From a virus, in the UHGV virus genome UHGV-0132465: a stretch of DNA of 64,000 nucleotides; one strand, given 5' to 3'. Under the pieces are notes generated by a model. It was not told where the DNA came from, did not search any database, and saw only the letters and a list, made by a program, of their open reading frames with translations. A program made the translations under genes and the position numbers. Position 1 is the first letter of the stretch, and every line of letters starts with the position of its first letter. Positions 17,884-45,939 of this stretch are shown one piece after another.

Positions 17884-18648
17884 TTGAAATTTATCTACAA
17901 AGAACACTACCACAAAGGTGTTGTGTGGAGTCTATTTGACGGGTCTGGTGGTGCAGTTATTGACTGGGCAAAAGCTGGGTACCTGTGCCTGTGCTTTAAT
18001 GCAGAAGGTGCTGACCACGGTAGTTATGCAGAGGTGATAACCGATCATCCTAACATTCACTATGTGGATTATTGGATTGATCCATGGTTCCCTCAAGAAA
18101 CTTTTTGCATGTATCCAGCTCCAGACTTTATTCTTGCATTTCCTCCGTGCACGCATTTAGCAGTATCCGGAGCTGCACACTTTAAGAAAAAGCTGGCTAA
18201 GGATCCTCTGATCCAAATTAATGCTGTGAAAGATGCTCGGGTTGCAGAAGAGTTGGGAGAGATTTACGATTGCCCGTGGCATGTAGAGAACCCTGTAGGA
18301 GTTATGTCAACACTGTGGCGAAAACCTGATTACCGTTTTCATCCTTCGGATTATGGCGGGTATTTACCAGAGGATGATGTAAACCCATGGTTTCCTGAAT
18401 TTATAGCTCCACGTGATGCCTACCCAAAAATAACTTGCGGTTGGATAGGTAATGGATTTATAATCCCCGCCACAAAACCTGTCCCGCAAATAGTTGATGC
18501 GGTTAGCGGTTATTCCATGCAACACGCTAAGCTAGGTGGAAAGAGTGCAAGGACGAAGATGATTCGAAGCCTTACACCACGTGGCTGGGCAAGAGCTGTA
18601 TTCTTAGCAAACGAGCCTGCAGTAAGGAGAAGAATTAATGGGCAGTAA
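17884..18648 (+). CDS. C5-cytosine DNA methyltransferase-like protein (compact, no obvious target-recognition domain)
   Basis: LFDGSGG (motif I-like), FPPC (motif IV-like Pro-Cys), HVENPVG (motif VI-like ENV) in canonical order; start proposed at TTG 17884 after AGGAG RBS because the ORF-track GTG lies in the terminator stem. Confidence 0.5.
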   Translation: MKFIYKEHYHKGVVWSLFDGSGGAVIDWAKAGYLCLCFNAEGADHGSYAEVITDHPNIHYVDYWIDPWFPQETFCMYPAPDFILAFPPCTHLAVSGAAHFKKKLAKDPLIQINAVKDARVAEELGEIYDCPWHVENPVGVMSTLWRKPDYRFHPSDYGGYLPEDDVNPWFPEFIAPRDAYPKITCGWIGNGFIIPATKPVPQIVDAVSGYSMQHAKLGGKSARTKMIRSLTPRGWARAVFLANEPAVRRRINGQ

Positions 18649-20716
18649 ATTCATGGCATCTGCATACAACCGTTTCGGTGAGCCAAACCCGAAAGCAACT
18701 AAGTATAAAAGTGGGGGAAGTGTGAAACGAGACTATCGTGATGAAAAAGAAGTTGAAACTGTAGAGACTGTTTTAGAAAATACTAAAATTGTCCCTGTTC
18801 CACAACAAAATATTGGACTGATGGCTGCACAATATTTTGGTGTACGATCATCGCTATCTCAAGAGGATGGTGTAACTGTTACTGCCACCTACTTCCCGTA
18901 TTATGACCGCTACGGTAATCTATCCGGCTTTAAAAAGCGGGACTGGACAATCCCTAAAGAGCAAAGGGGCCATTTCTCGGTTGTTGGCATAGTAAAGGCC
19001 AACTCCCAAATGTTTGGTCAAAAGCTGTGTGCATCCTCCAACAACCGTAAGCAGATTAACGTTTGTGAGGGAGAAGGTGATGTTATTGCAGCATGGCAGG
19101 CTGCATATCAGGTGCAAGTAAAAGGAATTCTCACCAATGCTAAAGCCCCAGCGAAGGTGAAGCAGTGGGCTAAAGAGGTCCAGGATGGGATCGATGCAGT
19201 TATCAACGGCGGCGATCTTGCAGGAAAACCCTGCCTACCTTTTGTTGGAATTAACTGCGGGTGTGCAAACGCAGTAGACACTTTTGCGAACAATGAGAAA
19301 TTTATCCGTAGCTACGGAACAGTGGTCCTTGCAATGGACAACGATGCAGCTAACGAGGTAGAGAAGCAAAAACACGTTATCAAAGGTGTTGAAGCCACAC
19401 ATAATATCGCAGCATTTTTGATGGCTGATAACGTTTACCACGTGGAATACCCAGGTGAGGTAAACGACCCTGATGGTGTAAAAGATATTCGTGACATGCT
19501 GAAGGCTAAAAAGCTGGAAGATATTGTCAACATGTTCCGTCACCCAGTCAAATATGTGCCTGATGCTGTATCTGATTTAGAAGACTTCTCCATTGAATCT
19601 CTTCGTAAGAAGACTTCCAATGGCGTGGATATTAGTGCAGAGTTCCCTAAACTGCAGAAGATGCTGAAAGGACTCCACAAAGGCACCTTGATGATGCTGA
19701 CAGGCCCGTCTGGCGGTGGTAAAACAACTGTAGCCAAGAAGCTGGAACATTGCATTGCAAGATACTTGATGGATCCAACATGCCCTAAAGCTGATGATTA
19801 TGAAGAGGATGATCGCCTGTGCCTGATTCACCTTGAAGAGGATCCTGAGGAAGCAATCAACTCTCTGTACGCTAACCAGCTGGGGTTTGATGTTAAAGAG
19901 TTTGTTGAAGACCCCAGTCAGTTCCTGACCGATCAGGAGCACGCTGAGATTCATCAATCTTGGGCCAAGGCCGGAAAAATCAAAGTGTTCAAGCATTTCG
20001 GCTCCATCCCTGTAGATGAGCTGATCACTAAGCTTAAACAAATGGTGTGCCTGTATCACTGCCGTTACATTGTGCTGGATCACTTGTCTATGGTGATTTC
20101 AGGGCTTAATGTTAAGGATGAGCGTAAAGAGCTTGACATGGCTATGACTCAACTAGCCGCGTTCTGTAAGCAGTTTAATGTGTTTATCTTGGTGATTGCT
20201 CACCTGAAGCGCACAGAGATTGTACCTCCGAAGGATAAGGATGGAAATCCGTTACCTTTCTGGTACCCTGTACGAAAAGAGAACCTTCGTGGTAGTGCCG
20301 GATTGGAGCAACTTAGCTGGGTGGTTGTCGGGGTAGAGGCAGAGGAGATGGTGGATCGTTCCCGTGGACGTGTCCGACTGGTAGGTCTTAAAAACCGCCC
20401 AGCAAAAACCTTAGGTATTGCAGACACTCTAGTTATGGATCCCCACACAGGCAAGTTCCATGATGCCAGCAACTGGTACTGGGACAAAGAAATGCAGATG
20501 TTTACAGACGGGGAAGGTGGGGAGGTTGTTTGGAGACCTCAGGCTATGTTTGAGGATCAGGAGCATGCAGTTGTAGAAACACCTGTAGGCAAGGTTGTGG
20601 CTGATAAGGTTATAACCCCTGCTGTTAACCCTGTTGACACACAGGAAGATCTTCAGTATGATGATCCGTCCTCTAACCACGTTCCTGGTTTTGAAGACGA
20701 CGAAACACCTTTTTAA
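18638..20716 (+). CDS. bifunctional primase-helicase (TOPRIM + DnaB-like helicase)
   Basis: TOPRIM-like CEGEGD and MDNDAANE; Walker A GPSGGGKTT; Walker B-like IVLDHLS. Confidence 0.85.
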   Translation: MGSKFMASAYNRFGEPNPKATKYKSGGSVKRDYRDEKEVETVETVLENTKIVPVPQQNIGLMAAQYFGVRSSLSQEDGVTVTATYFPYYDRYGNLSGFKKRDWTIPKEQRGHFSVVGIVKANSQMFGQKLCASSNNRKQINVCEGEGDVIAAWQAAYQVQVKGILTNAKAPAKVKQWAKEVQDGIDAVINGGDLAGKPCLPFVGINCGCANAVDTFANNEKFIRSYGTVVLAMDNDAANEVEKQKHVIKGVEATHNIAAFLMADNVYHVEYPGEVNDPDGVKDIRDMLKAKKLEDIVNMFRHPVKYVPDAVSDLEDFSIESLRKKTSNGVDISAEFPKLQKMLKGLHKGTLMMLTGPSGGGKTTVAKKLEHCIARYLMDPTCPKADDYEEDDRLCLIHLEEDPEEAINSLYANQLGFDVKEFVEDPSQFLTDQEHAEIHQSWAKAGKIKVFKHFGSIPVDELITKLKQMVCLYHCRYIVLDHLSMVISGLNVKDERKELDMAMTQLAAFCKQFNVFILVIAHLKRTEIVPPKDKDGNPLPFWYPVRKENLRGSAGLEQLSWVVVGVEAEEMVDRSRGRVRLVGLKNRPAKTLGIADTLVMDPHTGKFHDASNWYWDKEMQMFTDGEGGEVVWRPQAMFEDQEHAVVETPVGKVVADKVITPAVNPVDTQEDLQYDDPSSNHVPGFEDDETPF

Positions 20717-20774: not shown

Positions 20775-23552
20775 ATGAGTATGTGGTCTTTCGATTTTGA
20801 GGCCTCTGGCCTGCTGGAAGATCCAGATCTTTATTATCACTGCGGTTTGTTTAAAGAGTTGAATAAGAACCGTTTTATGCTGTTCCTTCCTCTAAATGAC
20901 CGCACACACTACTCTGAAGAGGATGTGGAGAAAGCTAAGAACTTCATTCTGGCAAAGAAGACCCTTTATACAGATTTTGATGTTCGCATAGCAGATTTTT
21001 CAGAGTTGGAGGGTTGGCTTACAGGTAACTCAGACTGGTCACCTACAGCTTTGAACTGTCATAACTGCTACAGCTACGACTTTATGCTGATGGAGAGATT
21101 ATCCGGTATTCATTTTGATATGTTCCGTGATCCTAAATGCATGGGAACTATCAACGACCACCAGGTTAATCTGTTTGATACGTTAGCGATGAGTCGAATC
21201 TTGTGGCCTGACCGCCCTTTGCCAAAAGGTTGTCCGGACGCAGTATTCAATCCAGTTACCAAGAAAATGCAGCCTGTTGGACCTCATGGTCTTATGGCAT
21301 GGGGCTATGCCCTTGGTAACCAGAAAGTTCAAATCGATGACTGGCGTGAGCTTCCGCTGTGGAAGTATGTGGATCGTGTGTTCGAGGACGTTATCATTCA
21401 GGAGTTGCTCTGGAAGGAGTTGGTAGCGGAATCAAAAGGTGTATTCTACGGCAAATCTGACATGCAGAACTTTATGTACGATCCTGCCAAAGAGAAGCCG
21501 AAAGGCTTCAAGAAGATCACCTGGAAGAACGCATTACGCCGAGGCATGTTACAGCACTTCCTGATGGAGCTGCAGGCTCGACAGGGGGTGTATTTCGACA
21601 TAGATGGGGCTATTGCTTTACGTGACCGTTGCGATGCGTGGATGAAAGAGATCGCTGATCGTGTTGAACCACAACTTCCTTTAAAAGAGCTATCAATGTC
21701 TCAGCGGCCTAAGTTTCCTGAAAAGCCGTTTAACCAGGATGGGACAATCTCCAATAATGGTTGGAAATGGTTAAAAGACAAGCTTGGCTACCCTGTAGAC
21801 ATGAGTGCTTTAGAGTTCAAAGCTCCTCCTAAGCGAGCATTTACCTCCACAGGGGATGTAAGTAAGATGGGGATAAAATGGTGTGAAGAGATGGGCTGTA
21901 AAGACCCCGATAAGATGGCTGATTTCTTAAGGGGGTATATCAAAGGAACTTCTACACCACACCCTTTACCTAAAGAGCTGATGGATCAGGCGATAAGTGA
22001 CCTACAGCAGAAGCGAATGCCTGACTGCAAGATACCTATGAAAATCAGCAATCAGGACGACATCAAGCGATACCTGATCAGTGCTGGTTGGCTCCCAACA
22101 ATGTGGAGAACTAAGGATGTAACTAAGGACAGCAAGAAGAAAGCTTTACCTGATGCAGATGTTGATGCACGAGTATATGCATATATGGACGAGCTTTTGG
22201 AGTCAGAGTATTGTGACCTAATTATCAACTTCTGGAACAAAACTGATGCTAAGTTTCAGACAACTGTACATAAGTTCAGAAGCTTCCCTAACTCTGAAAG
22301 AATTAAAAAGGAAGTGTTCGGGAAAATACGTAGAAAAGCCAGAGCGCTTATTACTTCTCCGCAACTGAAAGATACGTTTGGACACCTATGTCCGAATCTT
22401 GAAAAATTGAACGGAGAGATGGCTAAAGATATCGTTTTGTGGTTATCATTGCGAAACCGCAGATCGGTCCTTGATCCAATCAAGGAAGATAAGGTCGATA
22501 CTGGTCTTCTTAATCATCCACGTTTGAAGATTGACCACAAGCTTCCTGCTAAAAGTTCTGGATTAACAAACACTTCCAGACAGAAACATAGTATTTGTGC
22601 AAACATGCCTAAACCATCTCCTAAAGTGGTTATGGGTAAAGAGATGCGTAGTCTGTGGGGTGTTCCTCCGGGATACTTTGAGATCGGTATTGACGGATCC
22701 AACTTAGAGCAACTCATCGGGGCCTGGGGTGCCTTTGAGTTTGACAACGGTCTGTATTATGATGTTGTAAGTAACGGGGACGCGCACCAAAACAATGCTG
22801 AGGCATATACAAAAGTAGCAGGTAGAGAGGTGTCTCGTAACGATGGTAAACCTATCACGTATGGGGTTATGTATGGGGCACAAAAAGATAAAGTTGCAGA
22901 TATGCTGGATATCTCTCCAGAACTGGGGCAGAGAGTAATTGATGCTCTCTGGGATGCCAACCCAGGTCTTAAGGGGCGCAAAGAGGATCTGGAGAAATTC
23001 TGGGAAGCAACAGGTAAGAAATTTATCTACTCTTTTGACGGGCATGCCATTTGGACCCGCTCTAAACACTCTTTGCTTAATGCATATCAGCAAAATGGCG
23101 GTGCATCGTTGTGCGACTTGGTCGGAATCCTCATGCACCACCAAATGGTGAAGCGTGGATGGTATGATGAAGGTGTTCGTCGTATTATTTATTACCATGA
23201 CGAATATCAGCTTCAAGTGCCTGACACCCCTAAGTATAAAACTGTATACACCTTCGACACAATTGAAGAGCTGGAAACATTTAAGGCCAAGCAGGAGGCT
23301 AAACTTCATGTGTTCGACGGTCATAAGTACAAAAAGGCACGCAAGGATGAGGATGGAAACGAAGTGGTTGACAAGGACGGAAATACGGTATATGATCCTA
23401 TCTTGAATGATGACGGAAAGCTTGAACTTATCTGGAGCCCTGTGGGCGAAATGGTGGTGCATTGCTTCTGGCAGGCTTCTAAAATGATGGGCGTTCCGTT
23501 CCAGATCACAGGTGAATACTTGTGCGGTCGTAACTGGGGCGATTGTCACTAA
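20775..23552 (+). CDS. family A DNA polymerase with 3'-5' exonuclease domain
   Basis: FDFEASGL exo motif; motif B R..K....YG (REVSRNDGKPITYGVMYG); motif C YYHDEYQ; AAGGAG RBS. Confidence 0.9.
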   Translation: MSMWSFDFEASGLLEDPDLYYHCGLFKELNKNRFMLFLPLNDRTHYSEEDVEKAKNFILAKKTLYTDFDVRIADFSELEGWLTGNSDWSPTALNCHNCYSYDFMLMERLSGIHFDMFRDPKCMGTINDHQVNLFDTLAMSRILWPDRPLPKGCPDAVFNPVTKKMQPVGPHGLMAWGYALGNQKVQIDDWRELPLWKYVDRVFEDVIIQELLWKELVAESKGVFYGKSDMQNFMYDPAKEKPKGFKKITWKNALRRGMLQHFLMELQARQGVYFDIDGAIALRDRCDAWMKEIADRVEPQLPLKELSMSQRPKFPEKPFNQDGTISNNGWKWLKDKLGYPVDMSALEFKAPPKRAFTSTGDVSKMGIKWCEEMGCKDPDKMADFLRGYIKGTSTPHPLPKELMDQAISDLQQKRMPDCKIPMKISNQDDIKRYLISAGWLPTMWRTKDVTKDSKKKALPDADVDARVYAYMDELLESEYCDLIINFWNKTDAKFQTTVHKFRSFPNSERIKKEVFGKIRRKARALITSPQLKDTFGHLCPNLEKLNGEMAKDIVLWLSLRNRRSVLDPIKEDKVDTGLLNHPRLKIDHKLPAKSSGLTNTSRQKHSICANMPKPSPKVVMGKEMRSLWGVPPGYFEIGIDGSNLEQLIGAWGAFEFDNGLYYDVVSNGDAHQNNAEAYTKVAGREVSRNDGKPITYGVMYGAQKDKVADMLDISPELGQRVIDALWDANPGLKGRKEDLEKFWEATGKKFIYSFDGHAIWTRSKHSLLNAYQQNGGASLCDLVGILMHHQMVKRGWYDEGVRRIIYYHDEYQLQVPDTPKYKTVYTFDTIEELETFKAKQEAKLHVFDGHKYKKARKDEDGNEVVDKDGNTVYDPILNDDGKLELIWSPVGEMVVHCFWQASKMMGVPFQITGEYLCGRNWGDCH

Positions 23553-26061: not shown

Positions 26062-26307
26062 ATGGCTGAAGTAGTTGCTCGCGCAGGACAGAAAGTACGT
26101 TGTGTTGAAGTTGGTTTCGGCGGCAAAGGTTGCCAGAACCTAACACAAGGTAAGGAATACGCTGTTATTTCTGGTGGTGGCGATAAGAGCATTGTGTTCG
26201 ATGACCATATTCTGGATGTTGAAAACTTTGAAATAATTGACGATGATGGTGATCCGATCACCTGCCTGCTGAACGGGAGTTGGGGTACTTTCGAAGTAAT
26301 TGGCTAA
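26062..26307 (+). CDS. hypothetical protein (81 aa)
   Basis: ORF with GGAGAC RBS. Confidence 0.5.
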   Translation: MAEVVARAGQKVRCVEVGFGGKGCQNLTQGKEYAVISGGGDKSIVFDDHILDVENFEIIDDDGDPITCLLNGSWGTFEVIG

Positions 26308-26390
26308 CAAATACCTGTTGTAATTTGCAGAAGGAGATGCTAAAATGGTGTCTCCTTCTATGTTGTTCAAATAAAATCGGAGATTCCATA

Positions 26391-26756
26391 ATGGAACAAA
26401 TGAACGATCAAGCGTCGGTTGCGATGAACGAGCAAGAACAACCTCAAGAATTTTTCTTAGGGTTAAGTAAAGATCAAGTGTCTCTTCTGCTAGTGCTTTC
26501 TTCTTTCATGGGAAGACTTCAGGAGCTTACACAACAGCCAGAGGCTGAACAATTATTCCAGGCTCTGCGTGAAGAAGAAAAATATCGTCGTTTGGACTAT
26601 GCCTTAGGTTGGGTAGCTCAACAACGAGATATGCTGATGGCCCTCTCTGGGACCACAAGTTTTGCAATGGGCCTGTTGGCTCAAGTTCAGGACAAATTAA
26701 TTCAAGCAGGGTTTGCACACACGGCAAACACTAACGAAGAACAAGGAGATAAATAA
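26391..26756 (+). CDS. hypothetical protein (121 aa)
   Basis: start at ATG after GGAGA RBS. Confidence 0.5.
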   Translation: MEQMNDQASVAMNEQEQPQEFFLGLSKDQVSLLLVLSSFMGRLQELTQQPEAEQLFQALREEEKYRRLDYALGWVAQQRDMLMALSGTTSFAMGLLAQVQDKLIQAGFAHTANTNEEQGDK

Positions 26757-27982
26757 TGAGCGTTATTCAACAATTCGCTAACCCGATGAATCCGCGTGAA
26801 ACTGTTTTACTGGCTCACGGCATGATTAAACGTGTCAGCATCAAGCCTATCAAAGGTGCTGATCCTACAACAGGTATTAAAACCACTGTGTGGCAAGGTA
26901 AGAAAATTGAATCCAGCCACACCATCTCTTTACTGATTTCTGAACTGGATTCCTCTGATAACCTGCTTCAAGGTGGTGAAGAAGTTTGGATCAGTATGGG
27001 TGATAAGCTGCTTAAACCGGGTCATCAAGACTCTGTCTCTGTTAAAATTGATGACAAGTGGGAAACTGTAACGCCAGGATGGATCGTAAATATCCCTTTG
27101 AAGGCAAACGAGCATAACGGTAAGACCTATTACAAAGGCTCCCTGGCTAAGATGGTCAAGCTGGGTGCAGGAGAGGCTCCAGCAGCGACTCAGCAGCAAA
27201 AACAGCAACAAGGTGCACAATCACAAGGCCAGAAGCAGAAACCTCAGCAGAATGCCAATCAGGACGTTTTACGCATCTATGGCGATGTGACTCAGATTGT
27301 TGGCAACGTGGTTACTGTCAATGATCACAAGATTGGTGAAGGTGCTATGGTTGTCTCTGATGAGCAGCTTAAAGACCTGGTGGTAGGTGGTCGTGTTGCA
27401 GCTATTGTTGACAAAGACACCGGGAATATTATCAGCGGTTTTAAAGCCTACCCCCCAAAGGCAGAGAACAGCACTCAAGGCTCTGGTGGTAAGCGTAAAT
27501 CTTCTTATGATCCTATCGGTGTAGAAACAGGGCATAGCATCAATGCGTTGCAAATCATCCTGGATCGCGGGTTTAAGGTAGACAATCCTTTAGACGTGGC
27601 TAAAACACTACACGTTGTCACCATTGAGCTTAAGAAAGAGTACGCTCAAGCCACCAACCGAACTGAAGATGAAGTAGGTGCCAGTGTTGGTAATGCGGTA
27701 TTGAACGCTTGTCGCCGTATTGACAAGAAAACGAAAGTTGACGATTTTGCAGTAGCAATTACTGCAGAAGCAAAAGATGTCTTGACTAATCTTGCTGAAC
27801 CGTTGTATGATTGGATCAAGAACGGTGCTGGGGCCACTGACCATCAAGAACCTCAAGCTGCCAAACAGGAGGCCGCTCCACAGCAAAACACTGTAGACGC
27901 TCCTCCTGTAGATGATGGGGAAGACGACCCTATGGATCAGAATCCAGCACAGTACGCCTTTGATGATGACATTCCTTTTTAA
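26756..27982 (+). CDS. ssDNA-binding-protein-like protein with Gln-rich linker and E. coli SSB-type C-terminal tail
   Basis: ends in AFDDDIPF, matching the E. coli SSB C-terminal DDDIPF tip; Gln-rich low-complexity linker; N-terminal fold not recognisable by eye. Confidence 0.55.
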   Translation: MSVIQQFANPMNPRETVLLAHGMIKRVSIKPIKGADPTTGIKTTVWQGKKIESSHTISLLISELDSSDNLLQGGEEVWISMGDKLLKPGHQDSVSVKIDDKWETVTPGWIVNIPLKANEHNGKTYYKGSLAKMVKLGAGEAPAATQQQKQQQGAQSQGQKQKPQQNANQDVLRIYGDVTQIVGNVVTVNDHKIGEGAMVVSDEQLKDLVVGGRVAAIVDKDTGNIISGFKAYPPKAENSTQGSGGKRKSSYDPIGVETGHSINALQIILDRGFKVDNPLDVAKTLHVVTIELKKEYAQATNRTEDEVGASVGNAVLNACRRIDKKTKVDDFAVAITAEAKDVLTNLAEPLYDWIKNGAGATDHQEPQAAKQEAAPQQNTVDAPPVDDGEDDPMDQNPAQYAFDDDIPF

Positions 27983-27997
27983 CATCTAGTTAACATA

Positions 27998-28025
27998 GCC
28001 CTGCCCGAAAGGGTGGGGCATTTTT
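27998..28025 (+). terminator. intrinsic terminator, second copy of the 17839 hairpin
   Basis: identical GCCCTGCCC-GAAA-GGGTGGGGC stem-loop followed by T-run. Confidence 0.7.
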
Positions 28026-28044
28026 GTATAAGGAGGCCTGAAAA

Positions 28045-28820: not shown

Positions 28821-29246
28821 ATGATTTATGAAATGCCAAAACTGATTCGTGACGATGCACGAAACGCCCACACCTTTATTATGGGCAAGCGCATGGATAT
28901 TATTTGTCACAAAGACTTCTGGGAAGGGAGCTACTTCACAGAATATTTTGGAAAAATGGATGATGGCCTACTGATCCAGTTTTACACCGATGCGGAAAAC
29001 AACATTAGTTGGGAGTTCGAGACCGAAGATATCCATAAACTTTTCACCTTCCTAGACATTAAGGTTAAGGCCAAGTTTGAAGAAGGTGAGTGCGACGATT
29101 GTGGATTTTATGAGGTAACAGATTTCTATCTTCCGAGCGGTAAAAACCTTTACTATGAAAGCCACTTCGGTAACTCCAATATGCCACAGTGCTGGACTGA
29201 GTTTTTTGAAATTGTGGAAGAGGAGCTGGAATATCGTGATTATTGA
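28821..29246 (+). CDS. hypothetical protein (141 aa)
   Basis: ORF in co-oriented compact block. Confidence 0.5.
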   Translation: MIYEMPKLIRDDARNAHTFIMGKRMDIICHKDFWEGSYFTEYFGKMDDGLLIQFYTDAENNISWEFETEDIHKLFTFLDIKVKAKFEEGECDDCGFYEVTDFYLPSGKNLYYESHFGNSNMPQCWTEFFEIVEEELEYRDY

Positions 29247-29694
29247 TACTGTGGAGGGAGATTTAATCTCCCTTTTTAAGAGCGGTGCTGGTCACCTGAT
29301 CCACGGTTGTAACTGCTTCCACACAATGGGTAAGGGTGTAGCGAAACAGATTGCCCGTGAGTTCCCTCAAGCATTGGAAGCTGATAAAATGACTATGCAC
29401 GGTTGCCTAAGTAAACTGGGCGCGTTCTCCCGCTGGGAGCACTTATCTCCGAGAGGTATTGTCTACGGAATAAATCTGTATACTCAGTTCTACCCAGGGC
29501 CTAATGCTGAATATTTCTCAATACTGAAAGGCTTTGAGCGAGTCAATGAAGTATTTGAGGGGTCGATTTTACCATTCTACATCCCTAAGATCGGGTGCGG
29601 CATAGGTGGTTTGAAGTGGGAACATGTAGAGGACATTATTAACCTTGCCACTTTTGATATAGATATTATCGTGGTGGAGTACAAAGAGTGTTGA
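29236..29694 (+). CDS. TARG1/OARD1/DarG-like macrodomain protein (putative ADP-ribose hydrolase)
   Basis: GDLISLF...HGCNCFHTMGKGVAKQIAREFP and IPKIGCGIGGLKWEHVEDII align by eye with human TARG1 (GDLFA...[38 protein letters not shown]); GTG start after GGAG. Confidence 0.7.
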   Translation: MIIDTVEGDLISLFKSGAGHLIHGCNCFHTMGKGVAKQIAREFPQALEADKMTMHGCLSKLGAFSRWEHLSPRGIVYGINLYTQFYPGPNAEYFSILKGFERVNEVFEGSILPFYIPKIGCGIGGLKWEHVEDIINLATFDIDIIVVEYKEC

Positions 29695-42596: not shown

Positions 42597-42623
42597 AAGG
42601 GGCTTAAAGGCCCCTTTCTTTTT
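42597..42623 (+). terminator. intrinsic terminator (AAGGGGC-TTAAA-GGCCCCTT + TCTTTTT)
   Basis: GC hairpin and T-run after last plus-strand gene. Confidence 0.7.
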
Positions 42624-43208
42624 GTCTGCTCTTCTCCTACCATAAACGGCCCTACCTGGCAAGTGGAATAATTGACTAGCCATCAATCCCACACACTGTA
42701 TAAATATACATGGAAAATAACTATTGCATAATTTTTCATTGTGTGGTAGCAAGGCCATTTTTACCCGTTTTCTCTCCCAAAATTGCACGTAATGCCGCTA
42801 TTGCACAAAATTTAACCTGATGCACATCTTCAACATCTTGTCAATAACTAAAAATCTTTATAAGTCATACACTTACACAACCATAAAGCCGTGTTCTACG
42901 TGAAAAATCGAGTATAACTATAGCCGCCAGATCTCAGAATTTACGTACGTTCACCATTCTATAGCCTGCAAAGTATTTATTCCAACCACAGAATAACGGA
43001 ATAGTCAATACCTGCATAAAATAATTATTCGTGTAAACTGCATAACATAAATCAGCTCAGGTGTCAACATTTTTCGTAAGCAGTTCGAAATTGTCACGAT
43101 AAGTTATTATACACAAAGAAATCTTTAGTCGTCTAATGGTTACTATACATTACTAATCTGACTGGAATCATTAGATGACTAAGAGAAAGATAAGAAATAA
43201 TTAATAAT

Positions 43209-43518
43209 GTAATTGTTTTACCTGTAACAATAAGGCAACTATGCAAACGAATGGCATGGCGCGACGGAGTCGCGACATAATATAAAAGCAGTAACCATCA
43301 CCCCCGTGATAGTTTTTCTGCAATCTATTACTCAGATCATAGTTGCCTTGTATTTAGTTAATCATGACATAACAAGCAAGGCAACTATAGATCTTCTAAT
43401 AGTTGCCCTGCTTTTATATTATGTCATAGAAACGCCCGAAGGGGTGACCTAGTCACCTGGCATAGCCAGCGAAAGATTATTATCTTGTTAATTGTTTTCA
43501 TGCAAACGAATGTCATGG
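43209..43518. repeat. cluster of palindromes and iteron-like repeats (AAGGCAACTAT / ATAGTTGCC x4; GCAAACGAATGNCATGGC x2; GGTGAC-cta-GTCACC)
   Basis: multiple direct and inverted copies within 300 bp of an ORF-poor region between convergent gene blocks. Confidence 0.6.
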
Positions 43519-44268
43519 CTTATCATCTATGCGTGAACTATCCAGGCGTAAACAGTCTATGCGGGAACAATCTATACGGGAACAGTGAGGCATGCAATAG
43601 TAACAACTGTTATTGTATCCGGTGTGTTGAGTATGCCCGGTGTGTCACTATTATGTCACATTATGTCAGACAAGTTTTTCTCCTCTTTGTCAAGTGCTGC
43701 ATGAAAAATTTACAAACTGGTATGGTAGCATTTTTGCGGCCCTGTTTACATTCAGAAATGTATGTATAATCCTTGGTGTGTGGGCGTTTAGACGTCTGGA
43801 CGGTCAGAAGTCCGCAGGTCAATATCTAATCTATTGGTTGCTAACTATATCCCACACAAATAGTAAGAAATATAATTGTTATGTGCGTAAACAGTAACCC
43901 ATGTTATCAATCCCTGTATGTATCGCCAGTGGTGCGCATAATGGGTATTATGTTAAATTGCCCGTAATGATAACTATTCTCACAATGATAGGTATTCTCA
44001 TTCATCCCCACAAGATAGATTGCAAATGTTGTGCCACTGTGTGAACGGCCTGGTCTATTAATTTGCCTCACTGCCTCGATATTTGAGAATTATTATAAAA
44101 ATGAGAAGTATTCCCATTCCGTCCGCCTGGCAGCACTCCTGTAGGACAAGCACAAAATCGGGGCATAACTGACCTGTTCAGATATTTCTGGCTGACTCTT
44201 CAGGTCTGTGTGGGAAAAGCCAACCTCTCCGGCGGCGGGGTAGGGGTCAATTAAAAAATTTATGCGGT

Positions 44269-44325
44269 GTATGAAACCCTCTTCAGGCAAGGTGTGTATT
44301 ATGGTATGAAACCCTCTTCAGGCAA
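44269..44325. repeat. exact 22-bp direct repeat GTATGAAACCCTCTTCAGGCAA x2, 35 bp apart
   Basis: perfect duplication; flanked by related G-rich motifs at 44226-44250 and 44371-44396. Confidence 0.7.
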
Positions 44326-45084
44326 TGATATTTGTGGGTGTGATATTTGCTGGAAAGCCAGATATGACGGGACTCCCGGCGGGGCAGGGGTAGTACAGAC
44401 AGGGAAAATGTGGGGATGTAGTTGGGGAAATTGATCAGACAGGTAGAGTATGGAATATGTTATGAATATGTTAAATATGGAGGGTGAATATCTGTAGGAT
44501 TTGTGTGTAAAATCAAAGACTTAAGTGGTGTTGTGGTATTTTCTATAAATAATTCAAGTTTAATAGGTAATATTTGTCTCTATCCACTTTGTGTGGTAAA
44601 CAGATTTAGATGAAATTGGTTTACAAGTGTATACATAATATACAAATTAAAGATACAAGAAACCCCCCTCCCCCTTCGGCTACCATTCACCTTTTCCTCT
44701 GACTGGTACTTAAACACTTATTCAGACTCTTCAGGTTATCACCCATATACTATATGGCAGTGACTGGTGTCCTCCGGCCCCTCTTTCGTCACCCGTCCGC
44801 TTCGCCAAGCTAATGCCATAGCCAAATGTTCGGTTGTTCACCCTGTTCACTCAGGTGTATCTCCATACCCCTTCAAACCGAAGAGAACAGAAAACCCGAA
44901 TTACTCGGTAAAAGAAAAGAGAAGAACTTAATTTTATCAAGATAGGCAAGAATGTCAAGGGATGACTGCTCACTAAACAAGCAAACAGTCATGTGTGGTA
45001 GGTAAGTGATTGTAGTGGTGGAAAATTTAGTTGAAAGATGTGTTATAGTGCTCCCAGCACTTTAGCCGGGCAGCTAATTGTGTG

Positions 45085-45300
45085 TCAGTCCAGAGGTTCA
45101 TCCTCCACTTCACTGAAATCAATGTTCATGGTCTCTTCCCAACCATCGATCTCAGCACAAGAGTGAAGTTCTTTAGGGTTTACTCCCAAAGCCTCAGCAA
45201 CAGAGTCTATATTTAACACCTCTGGCAGGTATGATTCATCAAATTCAAGGTAAATCAGGCCACGAGTGTTGTCAGCCCCACCAAATATTTCTATTTTCAT
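45085..45300 (-). CDS. small acidic protein (71 aa), MK(I/V)-family member
   Basis: ORF with GGAG RBS; starts MKIEIF like several downstream paralogues. Confidence 0.5.
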   Translation of the reverse strand: MKIEIFGGADNTRGLIYLEFDESYLPEVLNIDSVAEALGVNPKELHSCAEIDGWEETMNIDFSEVEDEPLD

Positions 45301-45419
45301 GAAATCTCCTCTGGAAATGAGAGTGTGAACAGGGTTATACGTTCCAATATGATGGAATTATGCACGTTTGCCTCTTCAGGCCATGCTTTAGCATGATAAA
45401 CTTATGTGGGCTCGGTGCT

Positions 45420-45632
45420 TCATAGTCTCCCACCTCTGAACTCTTCGTGCTCAGGCATAATAGAGAACCAGATATCTACGATGTCTTCCCACGTTAGGTC
45501 ATCAGCCTCAGGATCTACCTGGAGCGAAGATGGAGAATCTTCAGAATCGAAGTTTTCCTCTTTCACTGGCTCAGCCAAGGGACATATGGTCACTCCTTTG
45601 GATGTCTCTTCAGATGCATGTGTGTTGATCAT
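45420..45632 (-). CDS. acidic hypothetical protein (70 aa)
   Basis: ORF in co-oriented block. Confidence 0.4.
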   Translation of the reverse strand: MINTHASEETSKGVTICPLAEPVKEENFDSEDSPSSLQVDPEADDLTWEDIVDIWFSIMPEHEEFRGGRL

Positions 45633-45939
45633 GTTCCACCCGTGAGTATTCCGGCAACAGCTGCTATGGACGTGATGATCATCAGGATCACCACTAAAAC
45701 CTCTGACAATGTTTTCATTGTGTATTCCATATTATCCAAACAATGTGTGGATATTATCACAGGAGCGGTAATGTGTCAACAGAAGCGCCGCGAGGGTTTG
45801 GTTAAAATCCGAGCGTATGGTGATTTGGGTCAAAACGGACGTGCGTTCTCGCTACGCTCGAAATAGAGAGTTGTTTACAGGCCGTCCTTAAACGCTCTGT
45901 AATAAGATTATCCATCTAAGGTATGCAATCGTGCACCAG

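Follow-up and report, generated by a model that had tools for sequence, protein, structure and literature searches.

A probable single-stranded-DNA-binding protein of Vequintavirus phages that ends in the C-terminal tip of Escherichia coli SSB

Vequintaviruses are rV5-like myophages of E. coli with genomes of about 137 kb, and the closest described relative of the protein treated here is a component of one such phage that triggers a bacterial defence system. [quoted passage not shown] A preprint dated 30 April 2026 describes mutants of the BASEL phage Bas52 that escape the reverse-transcriptase defence DRT10 (UG17) through the substitutions D252V and Y351C in Bas52_0087 (bioRxiv 10.64898/2026.04.29.721553). 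Triggering of DRT10 depends on Bas52_0087; when expressed on its own, the protein is not toxic and does not suffice to set off the system, and supplying the wild-type protein in trans strengthens the restriction of the phage (bioRxiv 10.64898/2026.04.29.721553). Furthermore, overexpression of SbcB (exonuclease I) weakens DRT10, and the authors propose a competition with SbcB (bioRxiv 10.64898/2026.04.29.721553). With the help of Phold and AlphaFold2, the authors predicted for Bas52_0087 a pair of OB folds, a bundle of four helices, a disordered region and the C-terminal tip FDDDIPF, with both escape residues located at a predicted oligomerisation interface (bioRxiv 10.64898/2026.04.29.721553).

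The window protein is 98% identical to Bas52_0087 of Escherichia phage RudolfGeigy (QXV84166.1, from MZ501102), with 398 of the 408 residues shared and no gaps. None of the ten substitutions falls on D252 or Y351, and both residues, together with the FDDDIPF tip, are common to the two proteins. The published architecture agrees with the independent models of the window protein presented below, and since this ortholog has been published with the same architecture and essentially the same reading, the SSB interpretation as such has been proposed before. The genetics of DRT10 triggering come from Bas52 only. Further evidence is provided by HIDEN-SEQ, a source of per-gene transposon data for the Vequintavirinae phage Bas54, in which bas54_0087, a 423-aa protein at the orthologous position, is classed as Essential with insertions in 8 of its 57 TA sites (bioRxiv 10.1101/2025.11.20.689424). 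The same per-gene data class the Bas54 primase/helicase (9/117 TA sites) and polymerase (0/150) as Essential, while the small flanking genes are mostly Non-essential, with bas54_0083 scored as Reduced fitness (bioRxiv 10.1101/2025.11.20.689424). Because the ortholog is essential on E. coli K-12, a core replication protein fits better than an accessory factor for host manipulation.

Taken together, the features of the sequence, the folds predicted for it, its conservation and genomic context, its orthology to the DRT10 trigger and the essentiality of an ortholog lead us to propose, with a probability of roughly 0.7, that the window gene encodes the phage's own essential single-stranded-DNA-binding protein. 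The protein would be part of a T7-style replisome, together with a DnaB-like primase/helicase and a family A polymerase, in which the two OB folds of one chain would bind single-stranded DNA (ssDNA), the conserved four-helix bundle would assemble the protein into oligomers, and the long acidic disordered tail would display FDDDIPF as a docking peptide. Judging from T7 gp2.5 and gp4, the tip most likely has its docking site on the polymerase or the helicase of the phage, and as it is identical to the tip of the host SSB, it would probably also bind host clients such as exonuclease I; we put roughly even odds on each of these two classes of partner. The oligomeric, ssDNA-bound form would then be what DRT10 senses. 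What the present analysis adds to the published description is the finding of no other SSB in a related genome, the conservation of the tip across about 130 family members, a member with a gp2.5-type core, the ...PF tail of the primase/helicase and a conserved peptide that caps the tip in certain alleles.

Architecture and family of the protein

The open reading frame (ORF) of 408 codons runs from an ATG to a TAA stop, encodes a protein with the C-terminus ...NPAQYAFDDDIPF, and is the ortholog of Bas52_0087, bas48_0087 and naswa_116. An AlphaFold2 model built from a 34-sequence alignment resolves three confident domains with disordered segments between them: an all-beta domain (residues 1-140), a barrel (170-233) and four helices (253-355), while the confidence score pLDDT drops below 50 at residues 141-168, 237-249 and 359-408. 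The first domain (26756..27175) is predicted to be an SSB-type OB fold, which bears the conserved motif NEYNGKTYY and the nearly invariant residues E119, K123 and Y126. Next comes a disordered linker rich in Gln (residues 141-169, 27176..27262), in which 13 of the 29 residues are Gln and whose length varies among family members. The second OB fold (residues 170-233, 27263..27454) is a minimal b1-b2-b3-helix-b4-b5 barrel that is missing from the short family members, and a short basic disordered linker (residues 234-250, 27455..27505) connects it to the four-helix bundle (residues 251-356, 27506..27823). The bundle is the most conserved module of the family and the proposed oligomerisation domain; its helices span residues 253-270, 278-300, 304-321 and 328-355 at pLDDT 87-94, and the columns G255, G259, H260, N263 and G312 are invariant across the family. 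With respect to the DRT10 escape residues, D252 lies immediately before helix 1 and Y351 within helix 4 of the window model. The chain closes with a disordered tail linker rich in acidic residues, Pro and Gln (residues 357-401, 27824..27958), which is hypervariable among family members, and with the FDDDIPF tip (27959..27979); residues 357-408 contain 13 Asp/Glu and a single Lys/Arg.

Structural matches of the whole model are almost exclusively OB folds, and when the first OB domain is modelled alone, genuine SSBs are its top matches, which indicates a superposable SSB-type OB fold and removes the doubt, raised in an earlier note on this DNA, that the N-terminal 150 residues might not form one. 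That note had left open a divergent phage SSB or an unrelated protein, and it is the former that the predicted OB folds, the gene context and the orthology favour, the two OB folds speaking against the latter. Its comparison of a Gln-rich stretch with the SSB linker held in part: the stretch at 141-169 is Gln-rich and disordered, but it sits between the OB folds, and the segment that precedes the tip is 357-401. A Foldseek search of the whole model against the PDB returned nothing significant (best E = 0.032), and no convincing structural relative of the helix bundle was found, the weak matches to the Bcl-2 family being noise. At the level of sequence, Pfam gave no match to the whole protein at E <= 10 besides two at chance level, and neither SSB (PF00436) nor gp2.5 (PF21265) was among them; searches of PDB sequences yielded nothing for the whole protein, the profile of the first OB fold or the profile of the bundle. 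The only PHROGs match is phrog_4477, a family of unannotated function that covers residues 1-408 (E = 6.5e-172), and a tblastn comparison of E. coli SSB with the window gave a match confined to the tail, with no similarity detectable beyond it.

The protein thus has several features in common with E. coli SSB and PF00436, namely an SSB-type OB fold according to structure comparison, a disordered linker and an identical C-terminal heptapeptide, but it differs in having no sequence similarity outside the tail and in combining two OB folds with a four-helix bundle in one chain. While E. coli SSB forms tetramers through OB-OB contacts, the window protein is proposed to oligomerise via its bundle. 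Two OB folds per chain are also present in the Deinococcus/Thermus SSBs, which, in contrast, dimerise through their OB folds, possess no helix bundle and have PF00436 domains in both positions. The likeness to T7 lies in an essential phage SSB with an acidic tail that ends in Phe, in a matching tail on the helicase-primase, in a polymerase of family A and in the gp2.5-type OB core of one family member; nevertheless, the window protein does not match the gp2.5 profile, and gp2.5 itself contains a single OB fold and lacks a helix bundle. Moreover, gp2.5 ends in ...GDF, as opposed to ...IPF in the window protein.

A search of 5.8 billion proteins retrieved 60 unnamed relatives with identities down to about 30%. 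The helix bundle marks a family of modest size, which, clustered at 50%, has 134 representatives in a set of 1.84 billion proteins. Its members are mostly 250-300 aa long and consist of one OB fold, the bundle and the tail, which suggests that the form with two OB folds is an elaboration. In the metagenomic protein P0178 (327 aa), the first OB fold is replaced by a Pfam SBB_T7 (gp2.5) domain at residues 30-171, which scores 51.1 bits against a cut-off of 27 and makes P0178 the sole family member to match the gp2.5 profile; a recognisable helix bundle and a ...DDDEEIPF tail follow. This chimera indicates that the bundle-plus-tail cassette was attached to an established phage SSB core and is exchangeable between SSB cores. 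A few records of short members from Justusliebigvirus and Phapecoctavirus relatives (H45, H48 and H52) are labelled 'single-stranded DNA-binding protein'. We rejected these depositor labels as independent evidence: the PHROG SSB profiles match the short relatives only over the last ~40 residues, that is, the tail (266-305 of P0056), and because these matches miss any DNA-binding domain, the labels seem to be right by luck.

The C-terminal tip and its possible readers

The earlier note had recognised that the 408-aa protein ends in AFDDDIPF like the host SSB, and this was borne out by reading the ORF and by the fetched record of E. coli SSB (WP_000168305.1), which ends in ...NEPPMDFDDDIPF and shares its final seven residues, FDDDIPF, with the window protein. 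Certain relatives match the host SSB over the last 12 residues, EPPMDFDDDIPF. Among the six-frame ORF ends of the window, the form [DE][DES][DES]?[IVLM]PF* occurs only in the SSB-like protein. All of 34 family members, with identities down to 30%, carry P407 and F408, and an alignment of 119 sequences with a mean column identity of 13% still shows both residues conserved at 90% or more. Since these two residues are kept while the flanking linker is hypervariable, the tip is under selection. Of 130 new distant representatives, 91 have PF at their end, a further 9 have F and about 10 have PW, the remainder being mostly truncated fragments; judged from these sequences, the acidic ...PF tip characterises the family. 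A recent capture of the tail from host ssb was considered and rejected, as four of the seven FDDDIPF codons differ from those of the E. coli gene.

The tip has a counterpart in the DnaB-like primase/helicase encoded upstream (18638-20716, plus strand), whose acidic C-terminal tail ends in ...GFEDDETPF. The FEDDETPF motif (20690..20713) is the probable functional partner of the SSB tail, and an acidic ...[TSCE]PF tail is found in 112 of 120 homologs of this enzyme with identities down to 42%, including those of Vibrio phages at 42-46% identity, which also have an acidic ...PF end. In six-frame segments of the relative Bas48, only two acidic ...PF ends occur, those of the SSB-like protein and the primase/helicase. 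Work on T7 from the Richardson laboratory is reported to have established that the acidic, Phe-terminated tails of gp2.5 and gp4 both dock on the polymerase. By analogy, the pairing of SSB and primase/helicase tails suggests a phage-internal tail reader here too, and a candidate reader of both tails, modelled on T7 gp5, is the family A DNA polymerase (20775..23552, plus strand). The Pfam DNA_pol_A match of this protein scores 31.8 bits, which is under the family's curated cut-off of 34.3, and its counterparts in relatives are annotated as DNA polymerase. A precedent for phage SSB tails that serve phage proteins is offered by phage HK620, the SSB of which needs its last six residues (NDYPPF) to recruit the phage-encoded Sak4 annealase (PMC5928155); it differs in being a distant, canonical SSB tetramer, and its recombinase partner is absent in the window phage.

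Capped alleles and competing explanations

In certain family members, the chain continues past IPF by an extension of about 15 residues, AP[IV]GLQY....[HY][AV][IL], which the window protein, with its stop at 27980, does not have. The extension was located at L005:2001-2700 (phage DrSchubert), L006:1066-1572, L007:1021-1572 and L008:1-1563. In Vequintavirus, the capped allele is accompanied by a homing-endonuclease gene of about 640 bp that sits exactly between the IPF codons and the terminator; in DrSchubert, this gene is bas50_0089 (L005:2056-2679), and the insertion point corresponds to window 27979/27980. The inserted endonuclease is free-standing with a Cys-rich N-terminus and is annotated as a homing endonuclease or endonuclease VII, and in DrSchubert and Bas54 its ATG is contained in the extension, but in a different frame. 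In the Bas54 per-gene data, the homing endonuclease next to bas54_0087 is Non-essential, with insertions in 32 of 37 TA sites (bioRxiv 10.1101/2025.11.20.689424). The last ~45 nt of the SSB-like gene are heavily substituted, which is consistent with co-conversion during homing. The capped allele was found in about 39 phage records (matches of at least 90% identity) compared with 116 records of the Vequintavirus type, and about a third of Vequintavirus genomes have the endonuclease gene inserted at this site; Bas50 and Bas54 have the capped tip, and Bas48, Bas52 and the window have the free one.

That the extension is a mere 5' edge of the homing endonuclease holds locally, in DrSchubert and Bas54, and was rejected as a general explanation. 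The extension also ends a canonical SSB of the lambdoid phage mEp235, an OB-fold protein of a Vibrio phage and a primase/helicase of Klebsiella phage DP, none of which has an endonuclease annotated beside it, and its conserved residues are maintained via synonymous codon changes across these phages. As the residues survive synonymous changes and occur elsewhere without an adjacent endonuclease, the extension is a selected peptide and not a scar; no description of the motif was found in the searchable literature. Known pockets for the SSB C-terminus bind the free carboxylate of the terminal Phe, and the extension would bury that carboxylate. Given that capped alleles are viable and that the capped Bas54 gene is essential, an exposed tip is apparently not needed for the essential function, which weakens models in which the engagement of host clients is the main job of the protein.

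These observations allow a reading in which the tail is an adaptor with two uses that a cap switches on and off. One kind of Pro-Phe tip would link both the SSB and the primase/helicase with the phage polymerase and, in addition, capture host SSB clients such as exonuclease I, while the 15-residue extension would act as a regulatory cap, either as a pro-peptide removed by a protease or as a second docking motif. The cap would thus set when the tip is exposed and, hence, whether defences that sense SSB, such as DRT10, fire. As a joint proposal it is tentative, and we regard it as unlikely.

The host-type tip also invites the explanation that the protein is mainly a decoy or hijacker and not a replication protein; by displaying many copies of the tip, it would titrate or redirect exonuclease I, RecQ, PriA, the chi subunit of Pol III and other clients of host SSB, so that host DNA maintenance is shut down or phage ssDNA ends are protected. 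The seven tip residues that are the same as in the host (12 in certain relatives) fit this idea, as does the counteraction of DRT10 by SbcB dosage (bioRxiv 10.64898/2026.04.29.721553). Nevertheless, the tail is not grafted onto a scaffold devoid of a nucleic-acid-binding fold, as two OB folds are predicted, and the gene resides in the replication module of a genome in which a second SSB could not be detected. On K-12 under laboratory conditions, the ortholog is essential like the polymerase and the helicase, whereas accessory host-manipulation genes are typically dispensable there, and the protein is not toxic when expressed alone. In addition, capped alleles with a buried tip are common and include the essential Bas54 gene, and the similar primase/helicase tail points to a phage-internal reader. 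We therefore give the decoy explanation a small chance of being correct.

Little probability is likewise assigned to a purely autoregulatory tail that, like those of T4 gp32 and T7 gp2.5, would fold onto the DNA-binding cleft and so tune affinity, in which case the identity with the host tip would be convergence on an acidic-aromatic peptide that happens to be convenient, and no partner would be involved. Such a role would suit the 13 acidic residues against one basic residue in the tail, the viability of the capped alleles and the four of seven codons that differ from ssb, which give no sign of recent host capture. It is less easily reconciled with a terminal Pro-Phe that has been kept over hundreds of millions of sequence-years while the acidic linker was free to vary, which fits a specific pocket better than bulk charge, and with the genetic link to SbcB, which points to a partner. 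The tip variants DDDIPF, DDDLPF, DDDVPF and DDLPW, which presumably resemble the SSB tips of different bacterial groups, were also counted against it. Finally, a recombination mediator or annealing protein that loads or replaces a recombinase on ssDNA, with a tail that mimics SSB for access to SSB-coated DNA, is very improbable. In its favour, a helical domain combined with an OB fold is reminiscent of RecO, and neither a recombinase nor an annealase is annotated in the genome. Against it, RecO scores no better than generic OB folds while genuine SSBs come first for the first OB domain, and RecO is a binder of the SSB tip and not itself a carrier. Moreover, nothing, RecO included, matches the structure of the bundle significantly, and the core to which the bundle-plus-tail cassette has been swapped in nature is that of a gp2.5-type SSB. 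An essential phage SSB thus remains the reading that we favour.

Genomic setting and significance

At the DNA level, 116 phage records match the gene with 95-97% identity; almost all of them belong to Vequintavirus, and the SSB-like gene is labelled 'hypothetical protein' in every one. On the basis of sequence comparison, the window is a Vequintavirus (rV5-like) genome and the SSB-like gene is within its replication module. Encoded upstream of it, without a change of strand, are rIIA/rIIB, a PIF1-type helicase, two methyltransferases, the primase/helicase and the family A polymerase. A 660-aa GHKL ATPase encoded upstream was considered as a topoisomerase subunit, a candidate that was rejected, as the protein is rIIA. 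No other SSB is annotated in the complete genome of the relative Bas48, and a six-frame search of Bas48 with the OB domain of E. coli SSB and T7 gp2.5 as queries gave no match at E <= 1.

A run of small ORFs comes after the polymerase gene. The ATG of the SSB-like gene overlaps the stop of the preceding ORF in the sequence TAATG, which suggests translational coupling of the two genes, and a Shine-Dalgarno sequence, AAGGAG (26743..26748, plus strand), was read 7 nt ahead of the ATG. The small upstream ORF spans 26280-26756 (about 26391-26756 in its annotated form), its end overlapping the start of the SSB-like gene, and it has no Pfam match. Its counterpart bas54_0086 is classed as Intermediate in the per-gene data for Bas54, and one of the resampling comparisons gives it a log2 fold change of -3.81 (bioRxiv 10.1101/2025.11.20.689424). 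Just 3' of the SSB-like gene, a hairpin resembling an intrinsic terminator (27998..28029, plus strand) consists of 9 bp, 7 of them G-C, and is followed by a T-run; a GC-rich hairpin and T-run directly downstream indicate that the stop codon is genuine.

Two further regions of the window deserve mention. A 179-aa ORF at 29155-29694, which is hypothetical in relatives, matches the Macro domain (Pfam PF01661, E = 2e-7), and from this match it is possibly an ADP-ribose-processing counter-defence enzyme. Separately, the region from ~42600 to 45900 contains no ORF of at least 100 aa, and transcription and GC skew change strand there. It includes an AT-rich patch (GC 0.33 at 42800-43199), a perfect inverted repeat of 18 nt at 43274/43408 and a perfect direct repeat of 22 nt at 44269/44304, and the 9-mer ATAGTTGCC is present in four copies, two per strand and all within 43234-43407, against a chance expectation of 0.45. 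The region corresponds to a Bas54 intergenic region that is free of transposon insertions in the HIDEN-SEQ data (bioRxiv 10.1101/2025.11.20.689424), which makes it a candidate for an origin of replication or a divergent control region.

To conclude, a host-type tip on a phage SSB will not surprise specialists, and the residual value of these findings lies in the paired tails, the cap peptide and the biochemistry of the protein. Its recognition supplies the SSB that had been lacking from the replisome of these phages, a group that is used for biocontrol and therapy. The paired ...PF tails suggest that the tail-docking logic of T7 extends to a large, unrelated lineage of myophages, and the BASEL collection, with its natural free-tip and capped-tip alleles, offers a ready-made comparison of tip function. 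In what is described for Retron-Eco8, Hna, DARNA and DRT10, phage SSBs appear to be emerging as a common alarm for bacterial immunity, of which the present protein would be a Vequintavirinae example. If it is true that the tail binds host exonuclease I, this would explain how DRT10 couples host ssDNA metabolism to infection.

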